A program made the position numbers and the translations under genes. The notes below the pieces were generated by a model. The model was not told the origin of the DNA. It worked only from the letters and a program-made list of their open reading frames with translations, and searched no databases. A stretch of 64,000 bases of DNA from a virus (taxonomy: Duplodnaviria; Heunggongvirae; Uroviricota; Caudoviricetes), in IMG/VR virus record IMGVR_UViG_3300033463_000062, positions 26,109-90,108 of that record; one strand, given 5' to 3'. The number at the start of each line of letters is the position of its first letter. Within the stretch, counting starts at the first letter, position 1. Positions 4,301 to 53,035 of the stretch are shown here, in pieces.

Positions 4301-5872
4301 ACTCTGTCTGATACGCTTAATAGCGACGAACTCAAAAACGCCACATCAGCAGTTTCCGAGCTCTCGTCCGCCATTGAGGAAATGGATGGATCGGGCAGGA
4401 TCTCTCTCGATACGGCTCAAAAACTTGCAGAACTTGGCGAGGAGTACGTTAACGCTATAACCGTGGAAAACGGAGCCTTGCGTGTAAACACCGACATATT
4501 GAGAAGTCTTACAATTAAAAAGTTGGAAGACGCTCGGGCGACCGCAATACAGAACAACGCTACTGCCGAAACAATTAAGTTGTACGATAAGCTGATTGCT
4601 GACGCAAAGAAACTGGGCTCTGGAGACTATCTCGATAGAGCGTTAAGCTTACGTGAATATAAAGACACGATACTCGAGTTTGCCGGTGGTGCCGACTATG
4701 ACAACATAAGACTTGAAGACTATTATCGGAATATCGTCGATATTCGCAAGCAAATAGAATACTTGCGCAATAACGGAGCGGGTTATGACGACCCCGAGCT
4801 CATGGAAAAATATAAACAGTATATCGAGTATTCGGAAAAGTGGCTTGCACTGCAGAAGGAAATCATCGGCAATGACAACGATGCTTATAAAGAAAGCATA
4901 GAAAAACAAAACGAAGCTTTAGATAAACAGAAAGATTTGCTTGACGACATCCTCGACGCTCGCAAGAAGGCTTTGCAGTTAACAAAAGACGAGAACAGTT
5001 ATCAGAAAGAACTCGCCTCTAAGCAGAAAAAGGTTGCGGACTTACAGACGCAGCTTATAACCGCTCGTCTCGACACGTCTGCATCCGGCAGAGCCCGCGT
5101 TCGTGCTCTTGAATCTGAGTTACAGAAAGCCCAAGAGGAGCTTGACGACTTCAATCTCGAACACGCGATTGATATCGTGAGCGATAAACTTGACGCCGAG
5201 AGAGAAGAAAACGAGTCAATATACCAAAGACAAAAGGCTAATAACGAAGCTCTGCTCAACGCATACATTACAGAGCATGAGGCGGAACTCAAAGACCTTA
5301 AGGACAAACTGCTCGAAGATTATGATATTGTTGGCACAGCTCTTGGCAATTTGGCGACCGAAGAAAACAATGTCGTCAGCGAGCTTCAAGGCATTGATGC
5401 AACAATACAGAAAATCGAGGAGAAAATCGGCAAAGACAACTTAGCATCTCAAGGAACAGAGCATTTCGTAACCGACTATTATTGGAACGGCAAGGGCGAA
5501 GATTACTGGAGGCGTAAGGAAGAACAAGTTTACGGCAAGATAGAGAAACATCACTCTGGCGGCATAGTAAGCGACCTCAAACTCAAGGACAACGAAACCT
5601 TCGCTAAGCTGATGAAGGGCGAATACGTTGCAACACCCGAACAGATGTCGCGTTTCTTAAACAGCACGCTTCCGAAAATGGCGTCTGTTAAGCCCGGAAA
5701 CGAATTCTATGCTCCGCTCGTCTCGATTCAAGTCGATTCGGTCAACAACGAAACGATGCCGAAGCTCGAAGCTCTTGTCAAGAGGGCTGCGGACAAAATC
5801 AAATCCGATATCACCTCGGCATTTGATAAAACAGGTTACAGAGGCACGACCAAAAAGGTCTTATCATATTAA
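1382..5872 (+). CDS. tail tape measure protein
   Basis: 1496 aa, Gly/Ser-rich N-terminal stretch, central hydrophobic TM-like segments, long coiled-coil Glu/Lys/Leu-rich C-terminal half, position before Dit/Tal genes. Confidence 0.85.
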   Translation: MAKTLDILFGVKGGSSISEGSGKIIYDQLKGIANEIASGNNKDILILGLNKSVTKDLITKQLNDIIGQIKTNALNIDLTINGKKWDGSGNGGSGGGSKYDATRMVNALTRQMSGFTAQGKLPEGSDMRKSYEQLLKELQAPNADLKQLSERWKDLNQQMRNFGTESNAAVKQANLLRNVTDYLKDYGDALKTADPDVYKKISDLADKLGSGAFNPEELKKFIVEFKNLTSEANNEAPKIIQFLGTLSERIKHFAITLALAALRKAIHEVYTNVVQLDKAVTDLQIASGKTRDEVKGMVKEYSQLAQELGTTTTVVAQGADTWLRQGYAAAEATELLADSTKLAVLGQMDAKEASTALTSAMKGYKKEVSEAIGIVDKFTAVDMQAAASAGDIATAMAETAVSANNTGVSMDKLIGYLTVVKEVTQDGAESVGTFYKTLFARMGNIKAGKYVSDEGEDLNDTEKVLKKNGILLRDSTNEFRNFGSVLDEVASKWQNFDSVTQHAIATAFAGTRQQEKFFVLMENYGTALEYEAVAAESAGTANKKYTEAYLDSIEARKNAMTAAYESLSQTILNSEAIKTAYEWITVIINALDYLLNDQLGGALVRSTALFALVYKGIPFLVSGLQNIKQAISAIIPNILSMTTATDGAAVSAAALSSAWQGVFAIVGLAIALITAITGAIKRYQQEQHDANLAAIESWKQGKDNADQLRKLYDQYRKLRPETAEYKSVEEKLLELLGDKTEALEGLTKGTDDYREAILNLTEAELNEAMVRSANSAEAATKEVSKRHYFDYAGLEEYGDVQRDMMLLGYSDSSDPNSTRRALSSMFSSSGKSVLQYNLDTFNAVNNAKEQLIKSAREDLRTGKITVSEYKNRLRSQLLKMFDTYLAESRSSIEDFFESNVAEYVQSFLLVNDLSGLYNKEDLDAAKEFVKDNFYDSFDIKASDFVTTMLTSAVDKWFEEAASNKTESIAEVWQTLSDTLNSDELKNATSAVSELSSAIEEMDGSGRISLDTAQKLAELGEEYVNAITVENGALRVNTDILRSLTIKKLEDARATAIQNNATAETIKLYDKLIADAKKLGSGDYLDRALSLREYKDTILEFAGGADYDNIRLEDYYRNIVDIRKQIEYLRNNGAGYDDPELMEKYKQYIEYSEKWLALQKEIIGNDNDAYKESIEKQNEALDKQKDLLDDILDARKKALQLTKDENSYQKELASKQKKVADLQTQLITARLDTSASGRARVRALESELQKAQEELDDFNLEHAIDIVSDKLDAEREENESIYQRQKANNEALLNAYITEHEAELKDLKDKLLEDYDIVGTALGNLATEENNVVSELQGIDATIQKIEEKIGKDNLASQGTEHFVTDYYWNGKGEDYWRRKEEQVYGKIEKHHSGGIVSDLKLKDNETFAKLMKGEYVATPEQMSRFLNSTLPKMASVKPGNEFYAPLVSIQVDSVNNETMPKLEALVKRAADKIKSDITSAFDKTGYRGTTKKVLSY

Positions 5873-5935
5873 CAAACAATGGAGCCGTCTGGCAATGCGG
5901 GCGGCTCCCCACATTAAAAATCAAAGGAAAGTTTT

Positions 5936-6736
5936 ATGTTTAGCGGTTTGAGTTTTTCATACGACGGAGAACTTTCGAGAGATTACGGTATAGCAATCCT
6001 TGATTTCGAGGGAACCGGCAAATTCAATACGAATATACTCTCCGCCACGGTCGGCGCGACCAAGCCTGCGTTATCGCGCAGATTTTTTCACGCTGGCTCA
6101 AAGATTGAAGCTCCGCCTCAGTTTGAACTGACGGTTGTAAGCGAGACGGCGCTTGACGACGAAAGACGCCGCGCAATTCTCGCGTGGTTATATAACCGAG
6201 GCGACTTTAAAATATTCAAAGTCTTCCAACCCGATTTGGAAGGCTATTATTATAAGTGCGTGTTTACAGACGTTTCTGCGATTCAGATAAACGGCAAATA
6301 CTACGGATTCACGTTCACGGGTATGTTTGACTCTCCGTATCAGTACGGTGAGCCTTCAATCGTTGAAACGACGCTGTCCGGCACAAGCACTTCATTTGCG
6401 GTACTGAACGAATCGGATATTCCAGACAGGTTTGTATATCCGAAAATCACACTGACTACCAACACATCAAACTACGGTATCATTGCTATTTATAATAGCG
6501 ATAACGTGCTAACCGCAACCCGAACAATGTATTTGAATTCGGTTGCTCCGCAGGAAACCCTCGCGATAGACTGCGAGCTGAAACTCATAAAGTCCAACAT
6601 AAGGACGTTCCCGATGTCTACGTTCGGCGGTCAATGGGTAAAGTTCAACAAGGGCTTTAACACCGTCGGTATATCGGCACCGGCTAATACAACGATAAGA
6701 GTAGAATGTCCTGAATATTCACTTGTCGGATTCTAA
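5936..6736 (+). CDS. distal tail protein (Dit)-like
   Basis: 266 aa, immediately after TMP and before the large Tal-like gene; order typical of siphovirus tail tip genes. Confidence 0.55.
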   Translation: MFSGLSFSYDGELSRDYGIAILDFEGTGKFNTNILSATVGATKPALSRRFFHAGSKIEAPPQFELTVVSETALDDERRRAILAWLYNRGDFKIFKVFQPDLEGYYYKCVFTDVSAIQINGKYYGFTFTGMFDSPYQYGEPSIVETTLSGTSTSFAVLNESDIPDRFVYPKITLTTNTSNYGIIAIYNSDNVLTATRTMYLNSVAPQETLAIDCELKLIKSNIRTFPMSTFGGQWVKFNKGFNTVGISAPANTTIRVECPEYSLVGF

Positions 6737-6745: not shown

Positions 6746-9700
6746 ATGGTAATATCATACGGCAATATAAAAAACATCGACGATATGGACATATATCTGT
6801 GTAAGCCGACAGAGGAACGGGTGGCGTGTATTCTCGCAACCGACAAAGTCTTCTCTGCTTGTTTCAACGACCTCTCGACCTTCACGATGAATGTTCACTA
6901 CGGTAACCACTCCGAAAGCTATTACGACCTGATAGAAACAATGAAACTTCTGGAGGTTACGGGGATCGGATATTTCCAGATTACCGTGGCACAGGAGCAC
7001 GAAGACGGCGCGGATAAATACAAAGAGATAACCGCAGAATCGTTGCAGACTGTGTTTAAACGCTTCGGTATAGATATACAAAACAAAACGTATTGCCTGT
7101 ATAATACCGCAGCGCCTACGGCTACGCTCGCACAGAACCAGAACGACGACACGTTCATACCGTCAATTGTTGCAGAGCTTGTAAGTCAGGTTGGAGTGGC
7201 TCTCGATTTGAACATAGTCGACACTACGCCGACCGTGAAATACGACGAGTGGACTATCACGTATATCTCCGATTCGTTGAAATATGCGACAGGCGGTACC
7301 GGCATTTGTCGCACAATGGACGAGAATGTAGATTTTGCCTATGATTTACTTGTCGGAAAAGTTGAAGAAGCTTTTGGCTGTGTGGTGTCATTCGATTATA
7401 TGTATAAGACGATTAAGTTTTATGATATGACGAATATCGCACAGCAGAAAAATGCTTATTTGTCGTTTGACAATTTTACAACCGATATGCAAGTCGAAGA
7501 AAACGCAGACGATATTGTCACGGTTCTCCGTTGTGAAGGCGACGGGGTAGACATATCTCTCGTTAACCCGACAGGTGCGGGCTATATCACGGACTTCTCG
7601 TACTATAAAGACGCAGTCAATCACAAATGGATGTCAGCAGAATTGATAGCAAAGCTCAACGCGTGGGAAGCGGACATTGCTTCAAATAAGTCCACGTATG
7701 AGGGTTTGGTTTTGTCATACAGAAACGCTCTCGCTGATATTCAGATCTATGAGACAGACTTAACAAACAGAACAAAAATCATACAGGATATGCAAGTCGG
7801 ACGCGACAAATACGCCGAGGCTGCGGCAAGCGACCCCGATACTTCTCTCGCTCATTCCGTTGCAATAGGCGAAACGGTTGATGTCGGGACAAAAAGTTTG
7901 GCAAGCACATCAGATTTCTACAATTCGGCGTTTTCTGCTTCTTCGGTAATAATGGCATATAACACTGCGCCGACTTGGGATTCCGCTCAGGCAAAATTCG
8001 TATTTAGCGGAAGCTCTTATCTGGGGTATGCAAGCCAAGCCTACAACTTGGGCTATTATTATTTCGCAGACGGCGACGCGTCACGCTCATACTGTAAACT
8101 CAAGGCAAAATATAATACATCGACTTCAACATACGATGTTATAGCGTTTGACAGATTTGTGGCTTATAAATATCTCGGAGCATTCACCACGCTTCAAGAA
8201 AAGAAAGCGGCATCTATCAAATCTGCTATGAATGCCAAACAGACCATAGCAGACGGTTATGCTCTCAGTATGAAGACAATATCCAACGCGTTAAACATCG
8301 CTTCGTTCTTCAGCGACACTCCTGACTTATATAAAGAACTCAAGCGTTACTGGATAGAAGGCAATTACAACGATTCGAGCATAGCCGTACACGATACAAC
8401 AACTATCGCCGAGCAGATAGACCTTGCGAACGAACTGCTCGCAAACGGCGCGACAGAGCTTTCGAAAGTCTGTCAACCACGTTTCAAGTTGAGCATTCAA
8501 GGCGTCAACTGCTTCGCAAACGAGGAACTGAGAGACATAGCAGACACGCTTAATCTCGGAGACGTTCTCGTCGTAGAGCGCGACGAGAATACAAAGTATT
8601 ATCCTGTGCTGTTAAAGATTACATTTAACTTTGACGATCCCGAACAGCTTCAGCTTGACTTGGGTAACTCCCTGCGTCTTGACGACTGGGGTTACACAAT
8701 GGCTGACATGATTACAAGCTCGGCGCAAACGTCTCGCGGCGTAAGCTCTAACTGGCAGGAGATTATTGCGTTCTCAAACGAGCGCAGTAAAATGTACGAC
8801 TTGATTGCAAATCCTCTCGATTCAGCTCTCAGGGCGGCAAACAAAAATATGACGAACCAGAATTTCACAGTTGATACGACCGGTATTCTCGGCAGAGTCA
8901 TAACAGAAAATCAAGGAGTTACCGATATTTCCGATAAGCAGATTCGTATTTTGAATAATATGATTCTCTTCACCCGCGACAACTGGGAAACGGCAGCCGC
9001 GGCATTCGGAGAAATCACGCTTCCGGGAACTCAGCAGCAGGCTTACGGTCTTGTAGCTGAAGCTATTATCGGCAAGCTCTTAATGGGCGAATCGCTTTAT
9101 ATCTCCAACGCGAACAGTTCGATAGTTTTAGACGGCTCTGGAATTACGATAACAATTGCCGAGTACAGTTCTACATCGACATACGCGATAGGGGATTATT
9201 GCATTTACAGTGGCTATGTCTACATCTGCAGCACTACGATTTCAACGCCCGAAGCGTTTAATTTGCTTCACTGGACTCTATCGAGCATCAGCTCGGGAAG
9301 CGCTTATGTGTTCCGCGCAGATACAAGAGGAAATCTGACAGCAAGAGGCACGATATATTCTTCGGCAGGACAAATCGGTGGCTTTACCATAGCGTCGTCT
9401 AAACTGTATTCCGGAAAAACGTCGTATAGCAGCAATACAAACGGTGTGTATCTCGGTACAGACGGCATAGGATTAGGCAAGCAAGCTTTCTATGTCACGA
9501 GCGCGGGCAAATTAACTGCAAACGAAGCGGTTATCAGAGGCAAAGTTACGGCAAATGACTTTTCTGTTTCCAACACTTTAAGCGCTAAAAACGGCGTACT
9601 TACAGTCGAGTGTGATGCAGACTTTCAAAATAAAACATTATCTGCGGGCACACTTAACTTGGAAACGAAAGCCAATATCGCTGAAATTCAGGGAACGTCG

Positions 9701-10525
9701 TCTTTAGGTGGTACAACGAGTTCAGCAAGCATAAAAATTACTGGCACGTATTCAAGCGAAAGCACATCTGACGGTACGGTTACACTGGCTTTCACTTATT
9801 CGGATATATCAAACTGGAGCAGCACGAACGGCGAATATGCGGACATGTATATTGTATCTCAGTATAATGACCGTTATGTAAGCGACAAAATCTCAATATT
9901 CGTTGCGCCAACTGCTGGAGCCAGAATATCGTCGGGAACTTATAGGATCAGTGGAATCTCGTTCTGTGGGCTAAGTTCTTCTCCTGTAACAGACCCGTCT
10001 GTTGACCCGAGTTCGGGAAGCCAAACCGTTACAAAAACAGTCACGGCGTCGTATACAAGCGGCGGCACCCTAAACGTACTCAAGATTACATACGGCACGA
10101 CTATAGCTCCTACCGTTACCAGCGGAGCGCCAGGGTTCAGTTCATATTTGGGTTCTGCAAACTACAGGTGGGACACCGTTTATTGCTTACGAGTCGACCA
10201 GTCCTCCTCTCGTGACACTAAAGACAAAATTGAGCTTTTGTCTGATCCGTATGAAAAATTCTTCGATAACCTCAAGCCGAGGTCTTTTTTAATGAAGTCG
10301 GATGAGAGCGGAAGAAGACATTACGGATTTATTGTCGACGAGGTTGTGGCTGCTGCGAAAGACGCAGGAATAGACGACTGCGGTTTGTATTCGCTTATGG
10401 ATGCAAAAGACCCGTACAAGAATGGTTCTCTGTCGTACAGTGAGTTTATTGCTCTCAATACGTGGGAGATACAAAAACTTAAGGCTCGAATTGACGAGCT
10501 TGAAAAATACAATTTAAGGGGATAA
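6746..10525 (+). CDS. tail-associated protein / tail fibre (Tal-like) with C-terminal intramolecular chaperone (peptidase S74-like) domain
   Basis: 1259 aa after Dit; strong RBS AGGAGG; C-terminal ~120 aa contains SSRDTKDKIELL motif resembling the Ser-Lys autoproteolytic chaperone domain of tail fibres/endosialidases; Thr/Ser/Gly-rich fibre-like repeats. Confidence 0.7.
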   Translation: MVISYGNIKNIDDMDIYLCKPTEERVACILATDKVFSACFNDLSTFTMNVHYGNHSESYYDLIETMKLLEVTGIGYFQITVAQEHEDGADKYKEITAESLQTVFKRFGIDIQNKTYCLYNTAAPTATLAQNQNDDTFIPSIVAELVSQVGVALDLNIVDTTPTVKYDEWTITYISDSLKYATGGTGICRTMDENVDFAYDLLVGKVEEAFGCVVSFDYMYKTIKFYDMTNIAQQKNAYLSFDNFTTDMQVEENADDIVTVLRCEGDGVDISLVNPTGAGYITDFSYYKDAVNHKWMSAELIAKLNAWEADIASNKSTYEGLVLSYRNALADIQIYETDLTNRTKIIQDMQVGRDKYAEAAASDPDTSLAHSVAIGETVDVGTKSLASTSDFYNSAFSASSVIMAYNTAPTWDSAQAKFVFSGSSYLGYASQAYNLGYYYFADGDASRSYCKLKAKYNTSTSTYDVIAFDRFVAYKYLGAFTTLQEKKAASIKSAMNAKQTIADGYALSMKTISNALNIASFFSDTPDLYKELKRYWIEGNYNDSSIAVHDTTTIAEQIDLANELLANGATELSKVCQPRFKLSIQGVNCFANEELRDIADTLNLGDVLVVERDENTKYYPVLLKITFNFDDPEQLQLDLGNSLRLDDWGYTMADMITSSAQTSRGVSSNWQEIIAFSNERSKMYDLIANPLDSALRAANKNMTNQNFTVDTTGILGRVITENQGVTDISDKQIRILNNMILFTRDNWETAAAAFGEITLPGTQQQAYGLVAEAIIGKLLMGESLYISNANSSIVLDGSGITITIAEYSSTSTYAIGDYCIYSGYVYICSTTISTPEAFNLLHWTLSSISSGSAYVFRADTRGNLTARGTIYSSAGQIGGFTIASSKLYSGKTSYSSNTNGVYLGTDGIGLGKQAFYVTSAGKLTANEAVIRGKVTANDFSVSNTLSAKNGVLTVECDADFQNKTLSAGTLNLETKANIAEIQGTSSLGGTTSSASIKITGTYSSESTSDGTVTLAFTYSDISNWSSTNGEYADMYIVSQYNDRYVSDKISIFVAPTAGARISSGTYRISGISFCGLSSSPVTDPSVDPSSGSQTVTKTVTASYTSGGTLNVLKITYGTTIAPTVTSGAPGFSSYLGSANYRWDTVYCLRVDQSSSRDTKDKIELLSDPYEKFFDNLKPRSFLMKSDESGRRHYGFIVDEVVAAAKDAGIDDCGLYSLMDAKDPYKNGSLSYSEFIALNTWEIQKLKARIDELEKYNLRG

Positions 10526-11266: not shown

Positions 11267-11782
11267 ATGCAATTAGAAACTGTAGTTGATACAAGGAACC
11301 TTAACGGTACTGTATCGACCTCCGAGCTTGACGGACGAGTTGTTACCACAAGAAGTCTCGCGGGAATGGCGGGGCTTGTTGTAATAGACGACGCTTTGTC
11401 GACAACGTCGATGAACCCCGTTCAGAACAAAGTTATAACCGACGCACTTGAAGCGGCAAAGGCGTTATGTGCGGCACCTTATAATAGCTCTGCAACGTAT
11501 GCTGTAGGCGATTATTGCATTTACAATAATATATTATATTGCTGCAACACCGCAATAGCAACGCCCGAGGCGTTCAACGGCTCTCATTGGACTGCGACTA
11601 CTGTCAGCGGCGAGCTGAAAACAGTAAAAAGCACGGTGTCCGGTCTTTGGCAGCCGCCCGCTTCTCCTGTAGCGGACGCTACGTACAGTCTTGTAAACGT
11701 GGTATCAGGCGGCACTCCGTCGTACTCGTGGGCAGAAGCTGTTACGTATGCTGAGCTGCTCGCAAACGAATGGGGCAACTAA
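11267..11782 (+). CDS. tail fibre-related protein sharing a conserved module with Tal
   Basis: RBS AAGGAGG; contains YAVGDYCIYNNILYCCNTAIATPEAFNGSHWT, near-identical in pattern to YAIGDYCIYSGYVYICSTTISTPEAFNLLHWT in the Tal ORF; C-terminus ELLANEWGN. Confidence 0.55.
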   Translation: MQLETVVDTRNLNGTVSTSELDGRVVTTRSLAGMAGLVVIDDALSTTSMNPVQNKVITDALEAAKALCAAPYNSSATYAVGDYCIYNNILYCCNTAIATPEAFNGSHWTATTVSGELKTVKSTVSGLWQPPASPVADATYSLVNVVSGGTPSYSWAEAVTYAELLANEWGN

Positions 11783-12327: not shown

Positions 12328-14256
12328 ATGCCTACAGATAAAGAAATATTTGAAGAAAAAATGGACGCTCTTGCCGACGCAATTAACGCAAAGTCCGGTT
12401 CGACAGGGGCAAAGAATCTTGACGCGCTTAGAACTACCGTTGAAAATATAAGCGTGGTCGACGAGGGAGCGATAGCCCCCGAATATGACGAGACTGTCGC
12501 GTATCAAATTGGCATTTTATTTTCATACGCCGGAAAATTGTATTACACAATAAAGAGCGCGCCTGCAGGGACTTCTCCGACAAACACAACGTATTTCCGC
12601 GAAGCGAGCGTTGCGGGCGACTTTATTTCCATTATAAAGATAACCGACACGGCGATTACGCTTGGCGACGTCAACAGCATTCTTAACGGAACGGGCGGTA
12701 TCAACCCGAGAGGGCTACATATAATGTTTGACGTCGGTGCGCTCGGCGCGTCAATGTATCTCTGCACGATTTATCTTGACACTACGACCAACGTATACAA
12801 GATATTCGACCTCGTTCTCGGCAGAGTTGCAGAAGGAACTTACGACGCCACAAAACTTCTGACGATGTGCATCGCTAACGCTGACGTCATTGCAACACAG
12901 CATCAGATAGACGCTTTGCAGAAAGAAATAAATGACCTCGGCGGCAAAACCGTTGTAGAGGACTGGGACAAGCTCGGCGATATGATTAAAGACGGCACGT
13001 CAACAAACGTCGTGAGCGCAGGCGATATAACTGACATCAACTGGATAGCGACTGTTATAGGTTCTACGACGAACGGTCTGACGGTCTCTTGCTCCAACAT
13101 AGACACGTTTGCTAACGGCATCGGAGAGGCAGAAGCAAAGACCTATCTGTTTGTATACAACGGCAGCGCGTGGACTTACAACGAACAGGCTGTCAACCTC
13201 GCAGATTACGCTATCACCGTGTCGGGAACTCCCGCAACGGGCGAGGTTATGACGATACAGACCACCGTTACGACCCGTTCCTACACCTTTACAGGATACG
13301 ACGACGTCGAAGCAGTCGACGCAAATGTGCCGCACAACTGGCTTATGGAACAGACTTACGCGCCCGATACAAAAACGTATGACGCTATCGAGGCTTGCAT
13401 GGTTCTCGCACAGGGCAAAACGCTTGCCGCGGGCAGCTATTACTGGTCGGCTCATTTGCAAGGCAGCGACAGTTTACAGACGAGATACTTTACGATATCT
13501 GCCGCTATAACCGCAATAAACGCGGACATTCAGTTTGCTCCGACCGCAACGAACTGGACTTCGCCGTATGTACCGACAAGCATGACGCCTTACTACAAAG
13601 GACAGACGACCGCTCTCGGCTCTGCTATCGCATTAAGCGCGGATGAAATATCCGGCGCGGTTGACGTTTCTACTGTCGACGGCGTATCTGTTCACGATTC
13701 GATTTATCAAATGGCATTCGGCTCTAACTGTTGGGCAAACTCCAATATAAGACAATGGCTCAACGATGATACGACAGGCACGTTTGTCGCAAAATCTGCT
13801 TGGGACAGACCGAGCGGATATAACTACGGCGCAGGCTTCCTGTTCGGTATTGATCCGAGAGTAAAGGCGTTGATTCAGCCCGCAAAGGTCAAGTGGACTG
13901 CCGGATATAACGCGGAAGGTTATACACAAGGTACGACGTATACTGCCGAAGATAAAGCGTTTCTGCTTTCGATGAAAGAAATGTCGTTCAATATAAATAC
14001 GGCAGAAGGTGAAATCAGCGATTTGTATGGAGAGTACACCAACAACACCCTTACAAACGATGCGGTTGCCGCCAGAGCGAAGTATAACAAAGCTGGTGGT
14101 ACGTTGAACTCGTATAGATGGTCTCGTTCGGCTAGCACTTCCCTCGCCAACTACGCTGGTATCGTCACATCGACTGGCACTAATGACGGCAGCAACGCGG
14201 GCCTCGCGCTCTACGTCGCTCCCGCTTTCATCATAGGCAAATCGACTAATCCGTAA
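12328..14256 (+). CDS. DGR target protein (putative receptor-binding tail fibre) with C-terminal variable repeat
   Basis: 642-aa ORF whose last ~38 codons (14121..14234) are the VR copy of the adenine-rich TR at 14829..14942; located in tail fibre cluster. Confidence 0.8.
   Translation: MPTDKEIFEEKMDALADAINAKSGSTGAKNLDALRTTVENISVVDEGAIAPEYDETVAYQIGILFSYAGKLYYTIKSAPAGTSPTNTTYFREASVAGDFISIIKITDTAITLGDVNSILNGTGGINPRGLHIMFDVGALGASMYLCTIYLDTTTNVYKIFDLVLGRVAEGTYDATKLLTMCIANADVIATQHQIDALQKEINDLGGKTVVEDWDKLGDMIKDGTSTNVVSAGDITDINWIATVIGSTTNGLTVSCSNIDTFANGIGEAEAKTYLFVYNGSAWTYNEQAVNLADYAITVSGTPATGEVMTIQTTVTTRSYTFTGYDDVEAVDANVPHNWLMEQTYAPDTKTYDAIEACMVLAQGKTLAAGSYYWSAHLQGSDSLQTRYFTISAAITAINADIQFAPTATNWTSPYVPTSMTPYYKGQTTALGSAIALSADEISGAVDVSTVDGVSVHDSIYQMAFGSNCWANSNIRQWLNDDTTGTFVAKSAWDRPSGYNYGAGFLFGIDPRVKALIQPAKVKWTAGYNAEGYTQGTTYTAEDKAFLLSMKEMSFNINTAEGEISDLYGEYTNNTLTNDAVAARAKYNKAGGTLNSYRWSRSASTSLANYAGIVTSTGTNDGSNAGLALYVAPAFIIGKSTNP
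14121..14234 (+). repeat. DGR variable repeat (VR)
   Basis: 114-nt gapless match to TR; 19 mismatches of which 17 correspond to adenines in TR (TR AAC codons become AGC, CTC, TAC, GGC, ATC etc. in VR). Confidence 0.85.
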
Positions 14257-14281
14257 TCGGGAGGGCATTCAGCCCTCCCCC
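14257..14281 (+). promoter_or_regulatory. GC-rich inverted repeat (GGGAGGGC-ATTC-AGCCCTCCC) immediately 3' of VR; candidate DGR target-recognition hairpin/cruciform
   Basis: perfect 8-bp GC stem with 4-nt loop starting 1 nt after target gene stop; no T-tract so not a typical terminator; analogous elements flank VR in characterised DGRs. Confidence 0.5.
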
Positions 14282-14296
14282 AACGAGGAATAAACT

Positions 14297-14773
14297 ATGG
14301 CTCAAAGAGTTGATGAAAGAGACCCAACAAGGGTAGAGTTAGACTGCTATAACAAAATATTAAAATTAAACGATCATGTGATGAGCGTTTGTAAACCGAA
14401 AGACAAAAATGTCAACAATCATCACATACCGAAAAAGAATACTGGCATCGGTAAAATACTTATGGAAACGTGCGTTGAGTGCGGCGCGGATATACTTGAA
14501 GCGAACGAGAACTTTTACGTAGGCAAGAATATTGACCGCAAAACGAGACTTGCAAACTATGAAGAAAGAATAAAGCTCCAAAAACACGCTATCCGCTTAA
14601 CGTATCGTATGGAACATATAGTACGGGTTCTCCATTTTAATCAGCCGTTCGCGGAAAGTACGATAAAGTATTTAATGGACTTGCTTTGCGAAGCAAGAGC
14701 GATGTTGATTAACTGGAGAGATTCGGATATTAAAATGTCAAAGCAACTCGCTGACGAAATAAAAGGCGAGTGA
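14297..14773 (+). CDS. DGR accessory variability determinant (Avd)-like protein
   Basis: 158-aa basic, predicted helical ORF located between VR and TR, the canonical position of avd in target-avd-TR-RT cassettes. Confidence 0.5.
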   Translation: MAQRVDERDPTRVELDCYNKILKLNDHVMSVCKPKDKNVNNHHIPKKNTGIGKILMETCVECGADILEANENFYVGKNIDRKTRLANYEERIKLQKHAIRLTYRMEHIVRVLHFNQPFAESTIKYLMDLLCEARAMLINWRDSDIKMSKQLADEIKGE

Positions 14774-14828
14774 TTTGAAGGCTCATTGTTGATGATGTGA
14801 GTGGGGCAAGTTGTTTGCATTTCTCTGT

Positions 14829-14942
14829 GTCTCGTTCGGCTAACACTTCCAACGCCAACAACGCAAGGAACGTCACATCTACTGGCACTAATGACAACAA
14901 CAACGCGAACAACGCGAACTACGTCGCTCCCGATTTTATTTC
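14829..14942 (+). repeat. DGR template repeat (TR)
   Basis: non-coding copy of VR, contains 9 AAC triplets in the VR reading frame; lies 54 nt upstream of RT start. Confidence 0.85.
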
Positions 14943-14995
14943 CATATATTCGTATGACCTGATGTTAGTAGCCGCAAATTATAAGGTGAAAACCC

Positions 14996-16051
14996 GTGTC
15001 GATAAATGAAAATAAAAGGAACAATGAACCTGCCGAAAGGCAAATAGAAGCCGCGGACGAACGATCCGTGTGCGGGCTTAACGCCCTGTTGGCTGCGGAA
15101 ACGAGAGCGCATCGCCACGTAGGCTATAAAAACAGCGTCTCCCGTTTCCATATGCTGACAATGTCTAAATGCAACGCTCTGTCGAACAGTTTGAAGGATA
15201 GAACATATCAGCCGAAGAAGGGCGAAATGCACGAAGTGTTTGAGCCTAAATACAGGATGACAATATCTTCCAAATATTGCGACAGGGTGCCGCAATCCAG
15301 TTTTGTAATCAATTACTTTTATCCCAAAGTCGTGAGCCAACTCATTCCGCATAATTGTGCTTGCATGAAAAACAAGGGTGTTGACTATGCGAGAAACGAG
15401 TTTAAGAAAATGCTCCGTAATGCGTCTTATGACGATTATTGTCTTAAAGCGGATATGAAAAGTTACTTTGCTTCTATTCGTCACGACAAACTTACAGAAG
15501 AACTCGGAGAGTTTATAACTGACGATTTTGCCATGTGGTTCTTTCTGAAAACGGTTGATAATACCAATAAACCAACCGGGCTTGATTTGGGCAGCGAGGT
15601 TTATCAGTTATCGGCTACAAGTTTTCTCAACAAGTTAGACCACGCGATAGGAAACGAACAGTATATTCGCTATCAAGACGACCTTGTATTTATAGGCACA
15701 CACGAGCAATGTCTGCAAATTCTGTCGATGATAGAGCAGGAGACGGAAAGGCTGAACCTTACAATTTCAAGAAAGAAAACGTATATTCAGTCGGTGTCAA
15801 GACCTATACACTTTTTGGGGTTTAGTTTTTGGAAACATGAAACAGGAAAGATCACAGTCAAAAGACTGCCGCAGAAAATTCGCAACGAGCGGAGAAAACT
15901 GCGCCATATGGTGAACAAAAATGTTCCCATAGAAAATGTAAAAATCCATTATCAATCGGTTAGAGCGTGTTTAAAATACGGAGCAAGAGCCGACTTGACT
16001 AAAATGGACAACTATATCAATAAATTATTCGGAGGAATAAAAAATGGTTGA
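14996..16051 (+). CDS. DGR reverse transcriptase
   Basis: 351 aa; RT motifs including GLDLGSEVYQLSA (DGR-type LGxxxSQ-like motif 4) and YQDD catalytic box; adjacent to TR. Confidence 0.85.
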   Translation: MSINENKRNNEPAERQIEAADERSVCGLNALLAAETRAHRHVGYKNSVSRFHMLTMSKCNALSNSLKDRTYQPKKGEMHEVFEPKYRMTISSKYCDRVPQSSFVINYFYPKVVSQLIPHNCACMKNKGVDYARNEFKKMLRNASYDDYCLKADMKSYFASIRHDKLTEELGEFITDDFAMWFFLKTVDNTNKPTGLDLGSEVYQLSATSFLNKLDHAIGNEQYIRYQDDLVFIGTHEQCLQILSMIEQETERLNLTISRKKTYIQSVSRPIHFLGFSFWKHETGKITVKRLPQKIRNERRKLRHMVNKNVPIENVKIHYQSVRACLKYGARADLTKMDNYINKLFGGIKNG

Positions 16052-16304
16052 AATCAGAAAAGGCGATTGGGCTAACGAACAAATCCAGAAGTCAAAGGAT
16101 TTGAAGCTCGGTCTTGTTTCGGAAGCGTCGCAGGAAGAAACGGAAATAGAACTGCTTATCCGTGAAAACTATTCTCTGTCACAGGAACTCGCCCTCCATC
16201 GTAAAAAGGCTATGGGTATTGTTGACGAAGCCGAGTGGGACACATACGTTGCCTACGTGCAGGCTTGCATTGACAGAGTAAGAGACAAAGACGAGCAGAG
16301 ATAA
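16044..16304 (+). CDS. hypothetical protein
   Basis: 86-aa ORF overlapping RT stop by 8 nt. Confidence 0.4.
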   Translation: MVEIRKGDWANEQIQKSKDLKLGLVSEASQEETEIELLIRENYSLSQELALHRKKAMGIVDEAEWDTYVAYVQACIDRVRDKDEQR

Positions 16305-18083: not shown

Positions 18084-19292
18084 TCATTCGCCGTCGGTAT
18101 TTTTGTAGTTATATACAGGACGTATTTTCTTTAGGATTTCCACGGTTGGTTCGATATTATCTACGATATCTGACATTGATTTGTATGCCATTGGCGATTC
18201 ATCTAACGTGTTAAAGCACACAGACGTGCTATACACTTTTGACATTCTTTCCTTGTATTCGTCAAGTGAAAGAGACTGCTTCGCGCTGCTCCTGCTTAAA
18301 ATCCTTCCGGCGCCATGTGGTGCCGAGCAGTTCCAATCGGGATTTCCTTTGCCTCGGCAAATCAGACTACCTTCTGCCATATTTATGGGTATAAGCAGAA
18401 TCTCTCCATTGTGTGCAGATACGGCTCCTTTGCGTAATACGTTGTCGTGAATATAATTGTGTCTCGTGGTGAATATGCTTATAGGATCAAACCCCATGTG
18501 GCTTCTGATTATTTCAAACATATCGTATCTATTTTCGTCAGCATAGTCCTGCACAATTTCCATATCGTGTAGATAATCGCGCATATCGTTTCCTGTAAGA
18601 TATGCCAACTCTCGTTGTACTTTTGGCTTTTCTGAATGATAACGCTTAAGCGTGCCTTCAATTTCAGATTGACGCCCCTCTTTCTTGAGCTGTTCGATAA
18701 TTGCTTTGATTTCGTTATATTTGACATCGTCATTAAGGCGTCTATACGCCAAATCCTGATAGTATTCGCACACCTGTTTCCCGAGATATCTGCTGCCAGA
18801 GTGTATAACGAGATATTTTGCTCCATTGTCGTCTTCGTCAACTTCGATAAAGTGGTTTCCGCCGCCTAAGGTTCCGAGTGATAGCATCGCACGGTCGAGA
18901 TTTATGCTATCTTTGCATATTAAATTTTCAAGTATCTTTCTGAAGTGTTGAGAGCGTTCGTAAACTTCGTTTCTGATGTTCATACCTGACGGAATATGTT
19001 GTCTGATCGTCTCGTCGAGTTTTTTAAAGTAGATTTCAGTTGTGTTTAACCCAACTGTCAGCATACCGCATCCGATATCAACTCCGACTAAGTTGGGGAC
19101 AACGTAGTCGTGTATTGTCATAGTTGTTCCTATCGTGCAGCCTGCCCCTGCGTGAATGTCGGGCATCATTCGAATTTTTGAATCTTTAACGAACGGCTGA
19201 TTCAGCAAATTCAGCACCTGTTTTATAGACTCCTCATCAACGCAGTCTGTAAAGATTTTTGCGTTGTTGTATTTTCCTGTAAGTTCTAACAT
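18084..19292 (-). CDS. rtcB: RtcB-family RNA 3'-phosphate/5'-OH ligase
   Basis: 402 aa with MPDIHAGAGC, GGNHF and HGAGR motifs characteristic of RtcB metal/GMP-binding sites. Confidence 0.8.
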   Translation of the reverse strand: MLELTGKYNNAKIFTDCVDEESIKQVLNLLNQPFVKDSKIRMMPDIHAGAGCTIGTTMTIHDYVVPNLVGVDIGCGMLTVGLNTTEIYFKKLDETIRQHIPSGMNIRNEVYERSQHFRKILENLICKDSINLDRAMLSLGTLGGGNHFIEVDEDDNGAKYLVIHSGSRYLGKQVCEYYQDLAYRRLNDDVKYNEIKAIIEQLKKEGRQSEIEGTLKRYHSEKPKVQRELAYLTGNDMRDYLHDMEIVQDYADENRYDMFEIIRSHMGFDPISIFTTRHNYIHDNVLRKGAVSAHNGEILLIPINMAEGSLICRGKGNPDWNCSAPHGAGRILSRSSAKQSLSLDEYKERMSKVYSTSVCFNTLDESPMAYKSMSDIVDNIEPTVEILKKIRPVYNYKNTDGE

Positions 19293-19488: not shown

Positions 19489-19788
19489 TTATTCGGTAGG
19501 TATTTTTTCTATCTCGTGTTTGAGATAAAACATTGCTTTGCTTAAATCTTCTTTCTTCTTTTTGGGGTCTTTCTTCCCTGCTCTCGAGATATATTTCGCA
19601 ACATTCCCGAGGCAGAAGTCCAGTCCCCAAGCGTCAATAACTTTGATTGCTTCATACGGATTGTCCTCCCCGCCGTAATATGACGGGTGATCAACCGCGT
19701 TGGATGTTCCGAACATCGGTGTTTCATAAATCGTTCCCACATTGGGCTCGTCTATAGTCGCGTTGTCCGATAATACTCCGTTATCCAT
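19489..19788 (-). CDS. DUF3310-like small phage protein
   Basis: 99 aa with HPSYYGG...IDAWGLDFCLGNVAKYISRAGKK signature typical of this conserved phage family; start may be internal Met (19716). Confidence 0.5.
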   Translation of the reverse strand: MDNGVLSDNATIDEPNVGTIYETPMFGTSNAVDHPSYYGGEDNPYEAIKVIDAWGLDFCLGNVAKYISRAGKKDPKKKKEDLSKAMFYLKHEIEKIPTE

Positions 19789-22700
19789 TTCTCATACTCT
19801 CCTTCGATTGGTAAGTATTTTCCATTGTTTTGTCTTTCAGACTTTTGTTTTCGCTCAAAATCTGAGATGTGAATTATGTCTCCGACCGCAACAGGGTAGT
19901 CTTCGAACGCCGTGTGAACTCTGCTATATGTACCTTTTCGCGCCCTGTGAATTCTGAAATCCTCTTGTTTGCCGGACTTCAAACTGTAGAGCTTCACGGT
20001 TGGCGAATACATTGTTTTGTCGGCATTACTGTCAACTATCAGAGCGTCGCGTGGGTCTGCGTCTTTGTCGGAGTACAGGACGAACCCGAGGATATCAAGC
20101 TGCGTATGTATTACGTCCACGGGGTCTAAATCCTGAACTTTCAGCATCGAGCAGAGGAACCCAAACAACCCTTCGCCGTCGATGTTCCTGAACTGCTTGG
20201 CGGTCTCCTTTGAAAATCGTATCATTATCTCCGGCGGATAAGGGCATTTCTCTTTGTCGAACTGTGAGCGTTTACGGATGTCCATAAGCTCCATTATCTT
20301 CAGGAGCGTCCAGGACTTTCCGTACTCGCTGAACATTCCGAGCGTAATCATTGTCTTTACCTGCGGCTCGCTGATTCCATTTTCAAAACATAATTCAATG
20401 CACTCAATGAGTGTGCTTGGCTGCTTATCTGCAACTATTTTTAGTGCAGTTGCCACGCCGGTGCCGAAACCTTTGAACGCTGATAAGCCGATGTGAATTT
20501 GTCCGTCTTTGTAGTACGTTCTATCCTTTGCGGTTCTCCAGTCGTCCAGTACGACGCTCACGCCCATTCGTCTCGCCTCTTTAACTGTCTTTGCGATATC
20601 CTCAACCTTTTCATAGGAGTTTATCATTCCCGTGAAGAATTCGCCAGTATGATGAACTTTGAGATACATCGCTATATATGCGGTCAGAGCGTATGCGGTG
20701 GAGTGGGAGTTACAGACAAGCAGTCCCGTGCCGGTGACGAAGTTGTGAGCAGGAGCGCTCATCTCAACGTCGTATGTCATTTCCATTGTCTCGTACTTTA
20801 TCGAGGCAACTCTCGAGAGTTTATACCTACCGTCTTCAGTGCGGTAAGTATATAGGATGTCTCCTACAGACAACTCGTCGGCGCGTTTGATTCCGTTGAT
20901 AGTCGGTATCTTGTGGTTTGGCGTACAATCGACGTAGCATCCGTTGTTTGTCGTTATACGGTAGAGATAGCGGACACCAGATTCCGTGATATTTACAACC
21001 TTATTCGGTTTCACTTTGCCTGCACGGAATTTTGACAAAGCGAATTCAGGAATTTTACTGTTGTCTGCGCACATCTCTTCGACCGTTGCCGACAGACTTC
21101 CGTCGGGTAACATCAATCGTGTGTCGCCTCTTACGCATTTATTGAACGAATATTTCGCGAAATCAATTATGTTGTCCCACAATGTATCGACCTGTTCCTG
21201 CGTCCAACCGCGAGCCATTAAACCGTTCTTCAGTTCTGGTTCGATTTTCGCCATAAGGTCTTTCTTCTTCTTGGCGGTGGCTTTTCTCAATTCGTCAGGA
21301 TTGCGCAGCTTTGCAAGCCTACCGATTTCTATGAGCTGCTCTTGGAACACTATGACGCCGTATGTATTTGAAAGTATCGGCTTGAGATCGTCGTGTAAAT
21401 ACGTGATTTTCTCTTTGCCATTCTTTCTGTTTACGAAGTCTGGGATGTAACTGTTGGAGCCGGGGCGGTACAATGCGTTCGCTGCTGAGAGCGTTTCTAT
21501 CGAATCGCAGTGCATGTCGCGCAATGTACGCTTCATTCCGCTTGACTCAAACTGGAAGATACAGTCGGTATTGCCTTGTTCAAATTCGTTCCACACGTCT
21601 TTGTCGTGCAGGTCAAGTTTGGTAGGCGTTATGTAACTGTAGTCTTTTCCTATCATTTCCAGAGTATCATAAATAGCATCGAGTGTTCTTAAACCGAGCA
21701 GGTCGATTTTAACGAGCCCGAGATCTTCTGCCGAGTGCATATCGCCTTGCAAAACCCAAGTGTCTTTGTCTTCGTTATATTCAATCGCATTGTAATACTC
21801 TGCCGGTTGAATACAGACGCAGACTCCGCACGGGTGTACTCCGAACGATTTAGGCAGTCCTGATAGAGCAGATGCGTATCTGAACAGTTCGGGATATTTG
21901 TCTTTATACTTGTCGAATATACCGAGTTCAAGCGCTTCTTCTATCGTGGCGTTGCTGTTGACTTGGTCGAGTGTCTTCGTCATTTCGTTCGTCACATCGA
22001 ATGGAATGTTCAGAACTCTGCCTATGTCTTTAATCGCACCTTTCGCCCAGATGTACGAGAACTGCCCGAGGTTTACAACTCGTTCGTTACCGTATCTGCC
22101 TACAATAAATTGCAGGACTTTATCTCTTTCGCTTGGACTAAAGTCCAAATCAAAATCCGGGACTTTGAGTTCTTTTTTCGTTATCGAGCCCTCGTGCAAC
22201 AAGTCGAGAGCTCCAACGTCAATAAATCGCTCGAAGTATAGTTTGTACTTGACAGGGTCGACGTCCACTATGTTGCATAAATATGCAAGCAAGCTCCCTG
22301 CGCCGCTACCTCTCGCAAGCCCTCGACGTTTCACAGAATTTCCGTAGCTATATACCAAGAGATAATAGCCAATGAAGCCCATTTCGTCAATAGCGTTCAT
22401 TTCATATTTAGCTCTTTGGATATAGATATTGCGGTAATCTTTTGCAGTCTTGCAATCCGGCGGGATAACGTCCGAGCCTTCGGGAAGATCGCTGAAGTAG
22501 TTCTGCCATTGCTCAATCGTCCAATTTTTAAAACCTTTCTTCTCGAAGCCCTTGTTGCAGAGGTCTTGCAGATACGCTTTCTCGGATTTATACCCGTCAG
22601 GAATATCTACGTGAGGCATTATCGGAGCAGACAGAGGTATCGTGTTTGTGCATTTGTCAGCGATTTTGTGGGTATTTTGTATTGCAATGTCGTTATATTT

Positions 22701-23438
22701 TCGTGTCATCCAACACAACTCTTTGACTTCGTCTTCGGACTGTATATAACAGTCGTCGTAAGTCTCGCCCGCTTCCCGCTGAGTTCCTATCTGCACGAAC
22801 ATATCGTGATACTTCTGGTCTTCTTTATTCAGGTAGTGTGCGTCTGCCGTAACCACGTATTCGATGCCGAGTTCTGTTGCAAGCTCTATTACGGCTTTGT
22901 TCAGCCTCTGTTGTTCGTCGTTCCGGTGCGATTGATATTCCAAATAATAATCATCTTGGAAGAGATTTTTGTATTTAGTTGCAATTATCTTCGCTCCAGA
23001 GACGTCTCCAACTGCAAGCGCTCTTTGTACTTCTCCCGCCATACAAGCCGACAAGCAAATCAGCCCTTCGTGATGTTCTGTCAACATATTGAAGTCTATT
23101 CTCGGCTTGCCATAGTATTTGTGCTTGCTCGACTCGCTTACAAGCCAGTTAAGGTTTTGTCTGCCGGTCTCGTTCTTTGCGAGGAGGATAAGGTGATAAT
23201 ATTTGTTGTCTTTGTCGTTTACGTTTGCATCGGTGCAGATATAAACTTCACTTCCGTTTATCACCTTAATCCCCTCTTTGCCGAGGACTGACAGAGCTTC
23301 AACGGCGGCATATAGGTTGCCGTGGTCTGTTATGGCTATTGTGTCCTGCCCGAGCTCCTTCAGTTTTTCAGCGAGAGCCGGAAACTTTATCATTGCGTCG
23401 AGCAGGCTATATATCGAGTGAACGTGCAGATGTATCAT
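19752..23438 (-). CDS. dnaE: DNA polymerase III alpha subunit (DnaE-type replicative polymerase) containing a mini-intein
   Basis: 1228 aa; N-terminal PHP domain (HLHVHSIYSLLD); conserved DnaE motif YSFNK...SHSTAYA split by a 143-aa insert. Confidence 0.85.
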   Translation of the reverse strand: MIHLHVHSIYSLLDAMIKFPALAEKLKELGQDTIAITDHGNLYAAVEALSVLGKEGIKVINGSEVYICTDANVNDKDNKYYHLILLAKNETGRQNLNWLVSESSKHKYYGKPRIDFNMLTEHHEGLICLSACMAGEVQRALAVGDVSGAKIIATKYKNLFQDDYYLEYQSHRNDEQQRLNKAVIELATELGIEYVVTADAHYLNKEDQKYHDMFVQIGTQREAGETYDDCYIQSEDEVKELCWMTRKYNDIAIQNTHKIADKCTNTIPLSAPIMPHVDIPDGYKSEKAYLQDLCNKGFEKKGFKNWTIEQWQNYFSDLPEGSDVIPPDCKTAKDYRNIYIQRAKYEMNAIDEMGFIGYYLLVYSYGNSVKRRGLARGSGAGSLLAYLCNIVDVDPVKYKLYFERFIDVGALDLLHEGSITKKELKVPDFDLDFSPSERDKVLQFIVGRYGNERVVNLGQFSYIWAKGAIKDIGRVLNIPFDVTNEMTKTLDQVNSNATIEEALELGIFDKYKDKYPELFRYASALSGLPKSFGVHPCGVCVCIQPAEYYNAIEYNEDKDTWVLQGDMHSAEDLGLVKIDLLGLRTLDAIYDTLEMIGKDYSYITPTKLDLHDKDVWNEFEQGNTDCIFQFESSGMKRTLRDMHCDSIETLSAANALYRPGSNSYIPDFVNRKNGKEKITYLHDDLKPILSNTYGVIVFQEQLIEIGRLAKLRNPDELRKATAKKKKDLMAKIEPELKNGLMARGWTQEQVDTLWDNIIDFAKYSFNKCVRGDTRLMLPDGSLSATVEEMCADNSKIPEFALSKFRAGKVKPNKVVNITESGVRYLYRITTNNGCYVDCTPNHKIPTINGIKRADELSVGDILYTYRTEDGRYKLSRVASIKYETMEMTYDVEMSAPAHNFVTGTGLLVCNSHSTAYALTAYIAMYLKVHHTGEFFTGMINSYEKVEDIAKTVKEARRMGVSVVLDDWRTAKDRTYYKDGQIHIGLSAFKGFGTGVATALKIVADKQPSTLIECIELCFENGISEPQVKTMITLGMFSEYGKSWTLLKIMELMDIRKRSQFDKEKCPYPPEIMIRFSKETAKQFRNIDGEGLFGFLCSMLKVQDLDPVDVIHTQLDILGFVLYSDKDADPRDALIVDSNADKTMYSPTVKLYSLKSGKQEDFRIHRARKGTYSRVHTAFEDYPVAVGDIIHISDFERKQKSERQNNGKYLPIEGEYEKWITEYYRTTRL
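20709..21137 (-). other. mini-intein inserted in DnaE (residues 768-910)
   Basis: insert begins CVRGDTRLML (block A), has TPNH (block B), ends ...APAHNFVTGTGLLVCN with +1 Ser (blocks F/G); flanks restore the canonical FNK|SHS DnaE motif; no homing endonuclease domain. Confidence 0.75.
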
Positions 23439-30037: not shown

Positions 30038-30454
30038 TTATCTTCCGCTGCTTCCAAATCCGTTCGCACCGCGTTCCGTTTCTTCAAGAGCTCCTACGAG
30101 TTCAACATCCGGCGTGATTATCGGATGTATGACAAGTTGTGTAATCTTGTCTCCCATCATAACCGTATAGTCAGTGTTCCCATTATTGTAAAGTTTTACA
30201 ACAATTGCACCCGTATATCCTGCGTCTATCGTTCCGAAACTCGTCAGATTGTGTTTTACGTTCAGTCCGCTCTTTGATTCAAGCGAACCTACGAACCCCA
30301 CGGGAATCTCCAGATGAACACCAGTGTTGATAACCGCGCTGCTATGTGCCGGTATTGTTACAGTTTCGGGAGACTTTAAGTCCATTCCCGCGTCGTTTGC
30401 ATGAGCCCTTACCGGCATATATGCTCCTGCATCAAGCATTACCTTGATTGTCAT
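30038..30454 (-). CDS. dut: dUTP diphosphatase (trimeric dUTPase family)
   Basis: motifs AGMDL, GTIDAGYTG and conserved C-terminal region of dUTPases. Confidence 0.8.
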   Translation of the reverse strand: MTIKVMLDAGAYMPVRAHANDAGMDLKSPETVTIPAHSSAVINTGVHLEIPVGFVGSLESKSGLNVKHNLTSFGTIDAGYTGAIVVKLYNNGNTDYTVMMGDKITQLVIHPIITPDVELVGALEETERGANGFGSSGR

Positions 30455-51529: not shown

Positions 51530-51593
51530 TCGTTCTAACATTTTTATACGTTCGATAAGACCGAACGCTTGCGTTTCCGCAAAATACGATTGT
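51530..51593 (-). repeat. conserved two-hairpin intergenic element, copy C (directly after recombinase stop)
   Basis: minus-strand form CACAATCGTATTTTGCG-GAAA-CGCAAGCGTTCGGTCTTATCGAACGTATAAAAATGTTAGAACGA. Confidence 0.75.
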
Positions 51594-51598
51594 GTTTC

Positions 51599-52970: not shown

Positions 52971-53035
52971 TCGTCCTAACATTTTTGTACGTTCGATAAG
53001 ACCGAACGCTCAGCTCTTGCTGAAATACGATTGTG
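52971..53035 (-). repeat. conserved two-hairpin intergenic element, copy D (upstream of recombinase, after stop of 53039..53266)
   Basis: hairpin 1 CAGC-AAGA-GCTG, hairpin 2 CGTTCGGTCTTATCGAACG. Confidence 0.75.

Follow-up and report, generated by a model that had tools for sequence, protein, structure and literature searches.

Evidence for a complete and apparently recently active diversity-generating retroelement of the BPP-1 type among the tail genes of a siphovirus-like phage

Does a phage lineage seen only in unannotated metagenome contigs carry a working system for rewriting one of its own tail proteins, and if so, to what end? The question is raised by positions 12328-16051 of a 64,000-nucleotide (nt) stretch of the IMG/VR virus record IMGVR_UViG_3300033463_000062, hereafter referred to as the window. 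An initial annotation, made from the letters alone, had proposed that this region holds a diversity-generating retroelement (DGR) in the canonical layout of Bordetella phage BPP-1, composed of a target gene with a variable repeat (VR), a hairpin, an avd gene, a template repeat (TR), and a reverse transcriptase (RT) gene. Each of these parts was found where it had been placed (Table 1), and the locus can be regarded with high confidence as a BPP-1-type DGR within the tail gene module of a siphovirus-like phage that probably infects gut or rumen Clostridia. The element is complete, and apparently recently active.

Central to this conclusion is the repeat pair. Self-alignment of the window reveals a gap-free direct repeat of 108 nt, VR and TR being offset by 708 nt as previously claimed, and within these bounds 17 of the 19 mismatches fall at adenines of the TR. 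The initial annotation had given these same counts for a longer range, 14121-14234, over which there are 23 mismatches, 17 of them at TR adenines, because the final 4-6 nt fall outside the repeat; the enrichment at adenines nevertheless holds across that range (Fisher's exact p = 1.9e-6). Two further details required correction: the repeat is not formed by the last 114 nt of the target open reading frame (ORF), as VR ends at 14228 and the stop codon occupies 14254-14256, the end of the ORF lying 28 nt past the VR end, and the nine AAC triplets ascribed to the TR number 11 in frame, together with one AAT. The translations quoted for the two copies were correct. Two mismatches fall at bases other than adenine (at VR position 14160, T in VR and G in TR; at 14172, G in VR and T in TR), and relatives share the TR base at the matching sites, indicating that VR is the changed copy. 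No second VR-like copy was found in the window on either strand. A 70-amino-acid (aa) ORF on the plus strand (14797-15009), annotated by gene callers in related contigs (e.g., L012 3501-3713), corresponds to the TR read in the VR frame and is probably a spurious call.

The same architecture recurs elsewhere. Nine related loci, found via homologues of the Avd-like protein (L001, L002, L005, L007-L011, and L013), all display the order DUF6273 target, Avd homologue, TR, and RT. Mismatches between TR and VR again fall almost entirely at TR adenines, with proportions of 16/16, 14/14, 16/16, 17/18, 13/16, 24/24, 17/17, and 17/18 in the eight loci other than L013, and 13/13 in L013. A further contig, L012, is identical to the window and is probably derived from the same phage. 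Searches of other kinds returned nothing: neither the region nor the first 25 kb showed nucleotide similarity to any of 50,697 phage records, an RT-based scan of IMG/VR yielded no relatives, and an exact scan of IMG/VR and JGI metagenomes for the VR 3' end, including its initiation of mutagenic homing (IMH) sequence, gave no match. Two contigs from metagenome-assembled genomes that contain relatives point, weakly, to a host that is probably a member of the Clostridia or Oscillospiraceae.

What, then, is diversified? Pfam DUF6273 covers residues 460-636 of the target protein (3.7e-13). Of the target's 60 homologues, one goes by the name of BppU-family baseplate protein, and PF10651 occurs in one. 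In an alignment of 57 homologues, the columns of highest entropy are those of the AAC-templated residues 603, 606, 608, 609, 612, 619, 621-623, 625, 626, and 628, between which lies a near-invariant scaffold composed of A607, V613, G617, A624, Y629, A631, P632, and A633. The N-terminal ~100 aa of the protein are swapped among relatives and the body is kept, a combination typical of receptor-binding proteins attached via modular adaptors. Consistent with such a role, the genes upstream include distal-tail and tail-spike-like genes as well as several small ORFs, and the cassette is followed by an M23 peptidase gene and small, possibly holin-like ORFs. The previously applied label of tail fibre is a fair approximation, though the protein is more accurately described as a baseplate-attached receptor-binding protein. 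On the basis of gene context and these homologues, diversification of receptor binding is most likely the role of the target, and the position between tail and lysis genes, together with homologues bearing a BppU annotation or domain, likewise suggests that tropism may be switched.

It is also conceivable, though unlikely, that an active DGR here diversifies an adhesin that binds mucus, immune, or other ligands, a role that has been proposed for tentaclin/Hoc-like DGR targets, or a decoy, such that host tropism is not switched. DUF6273 is indeed found in tentaclins with Ig domains (PMC10743442) as well as in a bacterial IgA peptidase, and the cassette of L011 adjoins capsid genes; however, in most relatives, as in the window, the gene sits within a tail or baseplate module just before the lysis genes, a BppU annotation or domain occurs among its homologues, and exchange of the N-terminal region is what would be expected of tail-attachment modules.

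The strongest evidence available for recent mutagenic homing in this lineage comes from L013, a sister phage ~95% identical to the window across the cassette. Between the two, the flanks are 5.3% divergent while the TRs differ at 0 of 108 positions, indicating purifying selection on the template. The VRs, by comparison, differ at 20 positions, 18 of which are TR adenine positions (p = 2e-9), and the remaining two are the window's own mismatches off adenines. So many adenine-templated differences between phages this similar argue for homing since their recent split.

These same data bear upon the possibility that the element is an intact but inactive fossil, in which the differences between VR and TR merely record past homing. 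The accumulation of two non-adenine mismatches in VR, the presence on record of one VR allele for this exact phage, and an atypical RT motif 4 would all fit such a state. Set against them, the RT, Avd, and target ORFs are intact with conserved catalytic residues, the template is preserved amid diverging flanks, and the VRs of the sister phages have parted at template adenines. The non-adenine mismatches, moreover, are compatible with ordinary drift, as their rate (2 of 74 non-adenine sites) is not above the 5.3% background divergence. A fossil is accordingly quite unlikely, and the element may be active to this day.

The proteins that would perform this homing are divergent yet recognizable. 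Among solved structures, the best match to the RT is Bordetella bRT (8ub7; 1.4e-14, 57 bits), the next being a group-II-like RT at 7e-7. D153 and the YQDD motif align to the bRT catalytic residues D138 and D215/D216, respectively, while R87 aligns with bRT R74, L198-G199 with I181-G182, and Q204 with Q187. Within a phage collection, RT relatives, all of less than 33% identity, occur in phages nd4 and nd12, Roseburia phage Shimadzu, Faecalibacterium phages FP_Brigit and FP_Lagaffe, crAss-like phages, and Bordetella phages; of these, nd4 and nd12 are described as DGR-bearing (PMC10743442). By alignment, then, the enzyme belongs with DGR RTs and displays an affinity to bRT.

Identification of the accessory protein proved less direct. 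The 158-aa ORF between VR and TR has no direct match in Pfam, NCBIfam, PHROG, or PDB sequences, and chance-level matches such as that to a cytosine methyltransferase (0.004) were set aside. An AlphaFold2 (AF2) model built from an alignment of 33 homologues is a confident four-helix bundle, with a predicted local distance difference test (pLDDT) score of 91. The top Foldseek matches of this model in the PDB are 2rld and 2gsc, presumably proteins of the Avd-like 23S-rRNA-intervening-sequence family (23S-rRNA-IVP), and the Bordetella phage DGR Avd, 4dwl, ranks 15th (root-mean-square deviation 2.7) with a target-normalised template modelling (TM) score of 0.82, the scores for the three structures being 0.82-0.88. 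Because the accompanying E-values were weak (about 1e-2), a bridge at the level of sequence was sought. A profile of the ORF's own family retrieved 107 cluster representatives from 1.84 billion proteins; distant matches of ~140 aa align to the query family with an hhalign probability of 99.9% (E = 8e-32), and 4 of 40 members of this ~140-aa family match Pfam bAvd (PF22296, 3e-9) and 23S_rRNA_IVP (PF05635). Fold and profile bridge together therefore identify the ORF as a divergent Avd homologue, with an insertion between helices 1 and 2.

The components named by the initial annotation were thus borne out individually as well as in their order: the avd-sized helical ORF is a predicted four-helix bundle with structural matches to the Avd family and a profile link to Pfam bAvd, the RT retains its catalytic Asp residues and YQDD and has bRT as its closest solved structure, and the hairpin expected after the target stop codon is present.

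Downstream of the TR, comparative folding with RNAalifold on two alignments predicts a structured RNA. The 3' end of the TR (14929-30 and 14934-40) pairs with spacer positions 15011-15019 (AATAAAAGG), which are followed by an invariant AAC; a hairpin with a GNRA or UNCG tetraloop is predicted at 15031-34/15039-42; and the motif AGTAGCC is conserved at 14967-73. Pair counting over the duplex and hairpin revealed 97.6% of cells to be paired, as compared to 38-50% in slid controls, and 18 compensatory cells as compared to 0-3, the observed score being reached by no shuffle. In the cryo-EM structure of the BPP-1 system, a template:primer duplex, TR(117-129):Sp(47-56), is accompanied by a tetraloop stem-loop downstream of the TR that binds Avd, and such stem-loops were reported in that study to be widespread. 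By analogy, the predicted duplex and hairpin would fit the priming duplex and the Avd-binding stem-loop, respectively. Only 59 nt separate TR from RT, so that these RNA elements extend over the first ~16 codons of the RT gene, the start codon position and ribosome-binding site of which are conserved in all loci with the frame remaining open. The amino acids encoded by the hairpin vary (AER, VYG, VCG, GES, VER) while base pairing is kept, indicating a constraint upon RNA rather than protein. An Rfam scan gave no match in the DGR region and a single tRNA in the window as a whole.

In view of these findings it is very nearly untenable that the repeat stems from ordinary duplication or recombination and lies beside the RT of some other retroelement (a group II intron, a retron, or a defence-associated RT, DRT) with no templated mutagenesis: although NCBIfam matches the RT best to group II intron and DRT models, every one of them scoring well short of its cutoff, and PADLOC lists DRT/UG RT models, mismatches are adenine-specific here and in nine other loci, no intron or retron RNA was found by Rfam, bRT is the best solved RT relative by seven orders of magnitude in E-value, an Avd homologue separates VR from TR, the TR and its spacer form a covarying priming-type duplex, and the true retron-type RT of the phage is encoded elsewhere (53419-54558).

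Signals that would direct homing are likewise discernible at the 3' end of the VR. Beyond the GC-rich segment common to both copies, a C in VR (14225) faces an A in TR (14933) in 10 of the 10 loci examined, after which the sequences diverge, and Ala633, encoded at this site, is invariant in the target family. A fixed difference of this kind, in combination with the invariant residue, suggests that information transfer halts 5' of this base, as it does at the IMH of BPP-1. Past the stop codon, the hairpin at 14259-14279 folds as DNA with a free energy of -10.4 kcal/mol (z = -3.5 relative to shuffled sequence), and equivalent GC-rich stems of 7-9 bp and differing sequence occur 26-40 nt past VR in eight loci scored by script, to which stems read by eye in L010 and L011 may be added; across the loci examined the stems change in sequence yet keep their pairing. 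As it has no T-run, an intrinsic terminator was ruled out. Hairpins or cruciforms of DGR target recognition have GC stems of 7-10 bp located 4-34 bp from VR (Guo et al. 2011, PMC3240598), to which the present structure corresponds.

Separately, the hairpin loop reads ATTCA in the window (14267-14271), GTTCA in L001 (7972-7976), and TGAAC in L013 (2971-2975). The last two are exact reverse complements set between identical palindromic stems, that is, a small inversion or flip, suggesting that the loop sequence is unconstrained in this clade.

Taken together, these elements suggest the following course of events. RNA spanning the TR and downstream spacer would fold such that the 3' end of the TR pairs with spacer 15011-15019. 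The RT, held by the Avd homologue, would then prime in cis from the spacer and copy the TR into cDNA, with misincorporation opposite its 34 adenines. The resulting cDNA would replace VR 14121-14228, homing being guided by the shared GC-rich 3' end and the hairpin at 14259-14279. As a consequence, ~17 residues on the surface of the C-terminal DUF6273 domain would be rewritten, and receptor binding would likely be altered. The theoretical protein repertoire afforded by the TR adenines is about 1e18-1e19 variants, an upper limit on what this process could yield, and codon enumeration reveals that adenine substitution in the TR cannot reach a stop codon.

Several observations weigh against this interpretation. 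Firstly, two VR mismatches lie off adenines, as described above. Secondly, the Avd homologue has no direct family match. Thirdly, the usual motif 4 signature of DGR RTs is [LIV]GxxxSQ, and the corresponding LGSEVYQ of the present RT lacks its Ser; across the clade this position is occupied by Y, N, or D while the Gly and Gln are kept, so that the deviation concerns one signature residue and not a catalytic one. Fourthly, hairpin loops in the clade are 3-6 nt long and do not match the 4-nt GRNA loop critical in BPP-1 (PMC3240598). Additionally, it was not possible to verify the predicted C-type lectin fold in the target, the AF2 model of residues 440-642 being poor (pLDDT 55) and its Foldseek search consequently uninformative and unused, and the target protein is the sole member of its 90% cluster, its only exact-sequence cluster likewise containing one member.

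How does the element compare with those already known? As in BPP-1 (mtd-avd-TR-brt), the order is target with VR, hairpin, avd, TR, and RT, and mutagenesis is adenine-specific; a GC-rich 3' end is common to both repeats, past which they diverge in an IMH/IMH*-like tail, and a GC-rich hairpin lies past VR; the RT is closer to bRT than to any other solved structure; an Avd-fold accessory protein is present; and pairing of the TR 3' end with the spacer, along with a tetraloop stem-loop, is predicted. Unlike BPP-1, the alignment of the RT to bRT is weak (57 bits), with LGSEVYQ at motif 4 in place of IGSLTSQ; the Avd homologue, at 158 aa, escapes detection by Pfam; the target carries DUF6273 rather than a domain of the Mtd family; in place of GAAA, the hairpin has a loop of 5 nt (ATTCA), within a clade range of 3-6 nt; and a TR-to-RT gap of only ~59 nt places spacer RNA over the start of the RT gene.

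A second point of comparison is provided by DGRs with DUF6273 targets, which have been described in the Faecalibacterium prophages Lelie, CP11, Roos, and Pioen (PMC11792537) and in phages nd4 and nd12 (PMC10743442). As in these gut Clostridia phages, the VR lies at the C-terminus of DUF6273 in a tail-associated protein, the setting being that of gut Bacillota phages, and the RTs of nd4, nd12, and the Faecalibacterium phages are among the nearest database relatives of the present RT. In contrast, none of their RTs reaches 33% identity to the present one, nucleotide similarity to the 50,697 phage records is absent, and the window contains one target whereas nd4 and nd12 each contain two (PMC10743442). 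Because DUF6273-targeting DGRs are already on record in gut Clostridia phages, the locus represents a new example and not a new kind of system. Its differences from known DGRs are of degree: a divergent RT and Avd, an atypical motif 4, a non-GRNA loop, and a compact spacer RNA extending over the start of the RT gene. One might go further and propose a compact, sequence-divergent DGR variant, distinguished by a Pfam-invisible Avd, a Ser-less motif 4, RNA elements within RT codons, a free or flipping hairpin loop, and, most speculatively, a fourth, dedicated component encoded at 16044-16304, in translational coupling with the RT; such a proposal is somewhat unlikely.

The result is a well-documented DGR from a lineage of uncultivated phages without relatives in phage reference collections. 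Pipelines reliant upon Pfam Avd models or upon [LIV]GxxxSQ would under-call this clade. The covariation lends independent comparative support to the conservation, in a distant DGR of Bacillota phages, of a BPP-1-type TR:spacer duplex and tetraloop stem-loop, and the variability of the hairpin loop suggests that the dependence on loop sequence observed in BPP-1 is not universal. The practical value of these findings is modest, and the understanding of how DGRs work is unchanged by them.

Table 1. Features of the retroelement, of its surroundings in the window, and of homologous ORFs in related loci
Feature	Position	Strand	Remarks
DGR target, 642 aa	12328..14256	+	Variable N-terminal ~100 aa, conserved body, C-terminal DUF6273 with VR
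Variable repeat (VR)	14121..14228	+	Ungapped alignment to TR; diversified sites span 14135-14210
IMH-like VR 3' end	14215..14231	+	GC-rich GTCGCTCCCG common to VR and TR, then fixed VR-C/TR-A
GC-rich hairpin/cruciform	14259..14279	+	GGGAGGGC-ATTCA-GCCCTCCC; 8 bp; starts 31 nt past VR
Divergent Avd homologue, 158 aa, pI 8.6	14297..14773	+	Structure and profile bridge
Template repeat (TR)	14829..14936	+	34 A; 11 AAC and 1 AAT codons in VR frame
Structured DGR RNA (predicted)	14929..15042	+	RNAalifold on two alignments and pair counting
DGR RT, 351 aa	14996..16051	+	GTG start, AAGGTGA ribosome-binding site; RVT_1 3.3e-18; PHROG 1423 7e-49
Conserved 86-aa ORF	16044..16304	+	Start overlaps RT stop codon; candidate DGR-linked gene
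~85-aa ORF homologues	L001 9752-10003; L007 5732-5995; L008 3723-3977; L009 5730-5987; L010 2387-2641		
~85-aa ORF homologues	L011 5694-5957; L013 4748-5014; L014 4712-4966; L017-L019 about 5001		
Tape-measure protein	1382-5872		Upstream of target
DUF6558 tail protein	5936-6736		Upstream of target
1259-aa tail protein with S74 chaperone domain	6746-10525		Upstream of target

Directly after the RT lies the 86-aa ORF, which has no Pfam, PHROG, or PDB match. Homologues occupy the same place in 8 of the 10 clade loci and in L014; they share the motif LIRxxYSMSQExxLHRKK...EW..Y..VQECI, and their starts overlap or abut the RT stop codon. When IMG/VR was scanned for the family by pattern, blind to DGRs, five relatives were returned. 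Three are situated just downstream of distant DGRs, with RTs that are 28-32% identical or RVT_1-positive and with TR/VR mismatches at adenines in 18/18, 16/18, and 22/24 cases; the other two (L016 and L020) have no RT nearby. The ORF may be an accessory, fourth gene linked to DGRs, or may instead belong with the receptor-binding protein. In one of the distant DGRs, L019, the RT cassette stands between two paralogous target-like genes of ~492 aa (1840-3321 and 5150-6628), which share ~82% identity across 1.28 kb, and this locus may represent a two-target DGR.

Several additional features of the window deserve mention. Among the tail genes, the motif YA[IV]GDYCIY...C.T.I.TPEAFN..HWT is common to the 1259-aa tail protein (residues ~800-830) and to a 171-aa ORF (11267-11782); it has a weak match to CBM_5_12 (3.8e-4) and may constitute a repeated carbohydrate-binding module of tail proteins. 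The retron-type RT already mentioned is encoded on the minus strand, carries a YADD motif, adjoins an RNase H gene (54877-55305, minus strand), and matches the NCBIfam retron St85 family (1e-56; 192 bits, cutoff 235) and PADLOC RT_II-A (2e-53); no msr/msd-like RNA was found in the Rfam scan, and no obvious effector was identified. In the region around this gene, an intergenic repeat of ~77 nt is present in three copies (51530-51606, 52971-53047, and 54812-54888) that are 70-75% identical and contain the hairpin CGTTCG-ATAAGAC-CGAACG. Each copy lies just downstream of a minus-strand gene, and the repeats may serve as regulatory or terminator/promoter modules.

A homologue of PurA, adenylosuccinate synthetase (30909-32090, minus strand), adjoins a dUTPase gene (30038-30454). 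Identity as PurZ, which would imply a 2-aminoadenine genome and an interplay of that genome with adenine mutagenesis, was rejected, given a score of 47 bits where the PurZ cutoff is 300, a better match to PurA, PurA structures being the best hits, and retention of GDEGKG. The gene for DNA polymerase III alpha (19752-23438, minus strand) contains an intein splicing domain (PF14890, residues ~776-878) and adjoins a gene for RtcB RNA ligase (18084-19292, minus strand). A ThiF/E1-like adenylyltransferase (55302-56042, minus strand), matched by PADLOC E1-E2 models and an NCBIfam PRTRC ThiF-like model, stands next to an ORF (55927-56634, minus strand) with an HxH...S..D motif of the JAB/MPN type, and the two look like a phage-encoded pair for ubiquitin-like conjugation and deconjugation. 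Lastly, a tRNA-Arg (CCG) is encoded at 59234-59319 on the minus strand.

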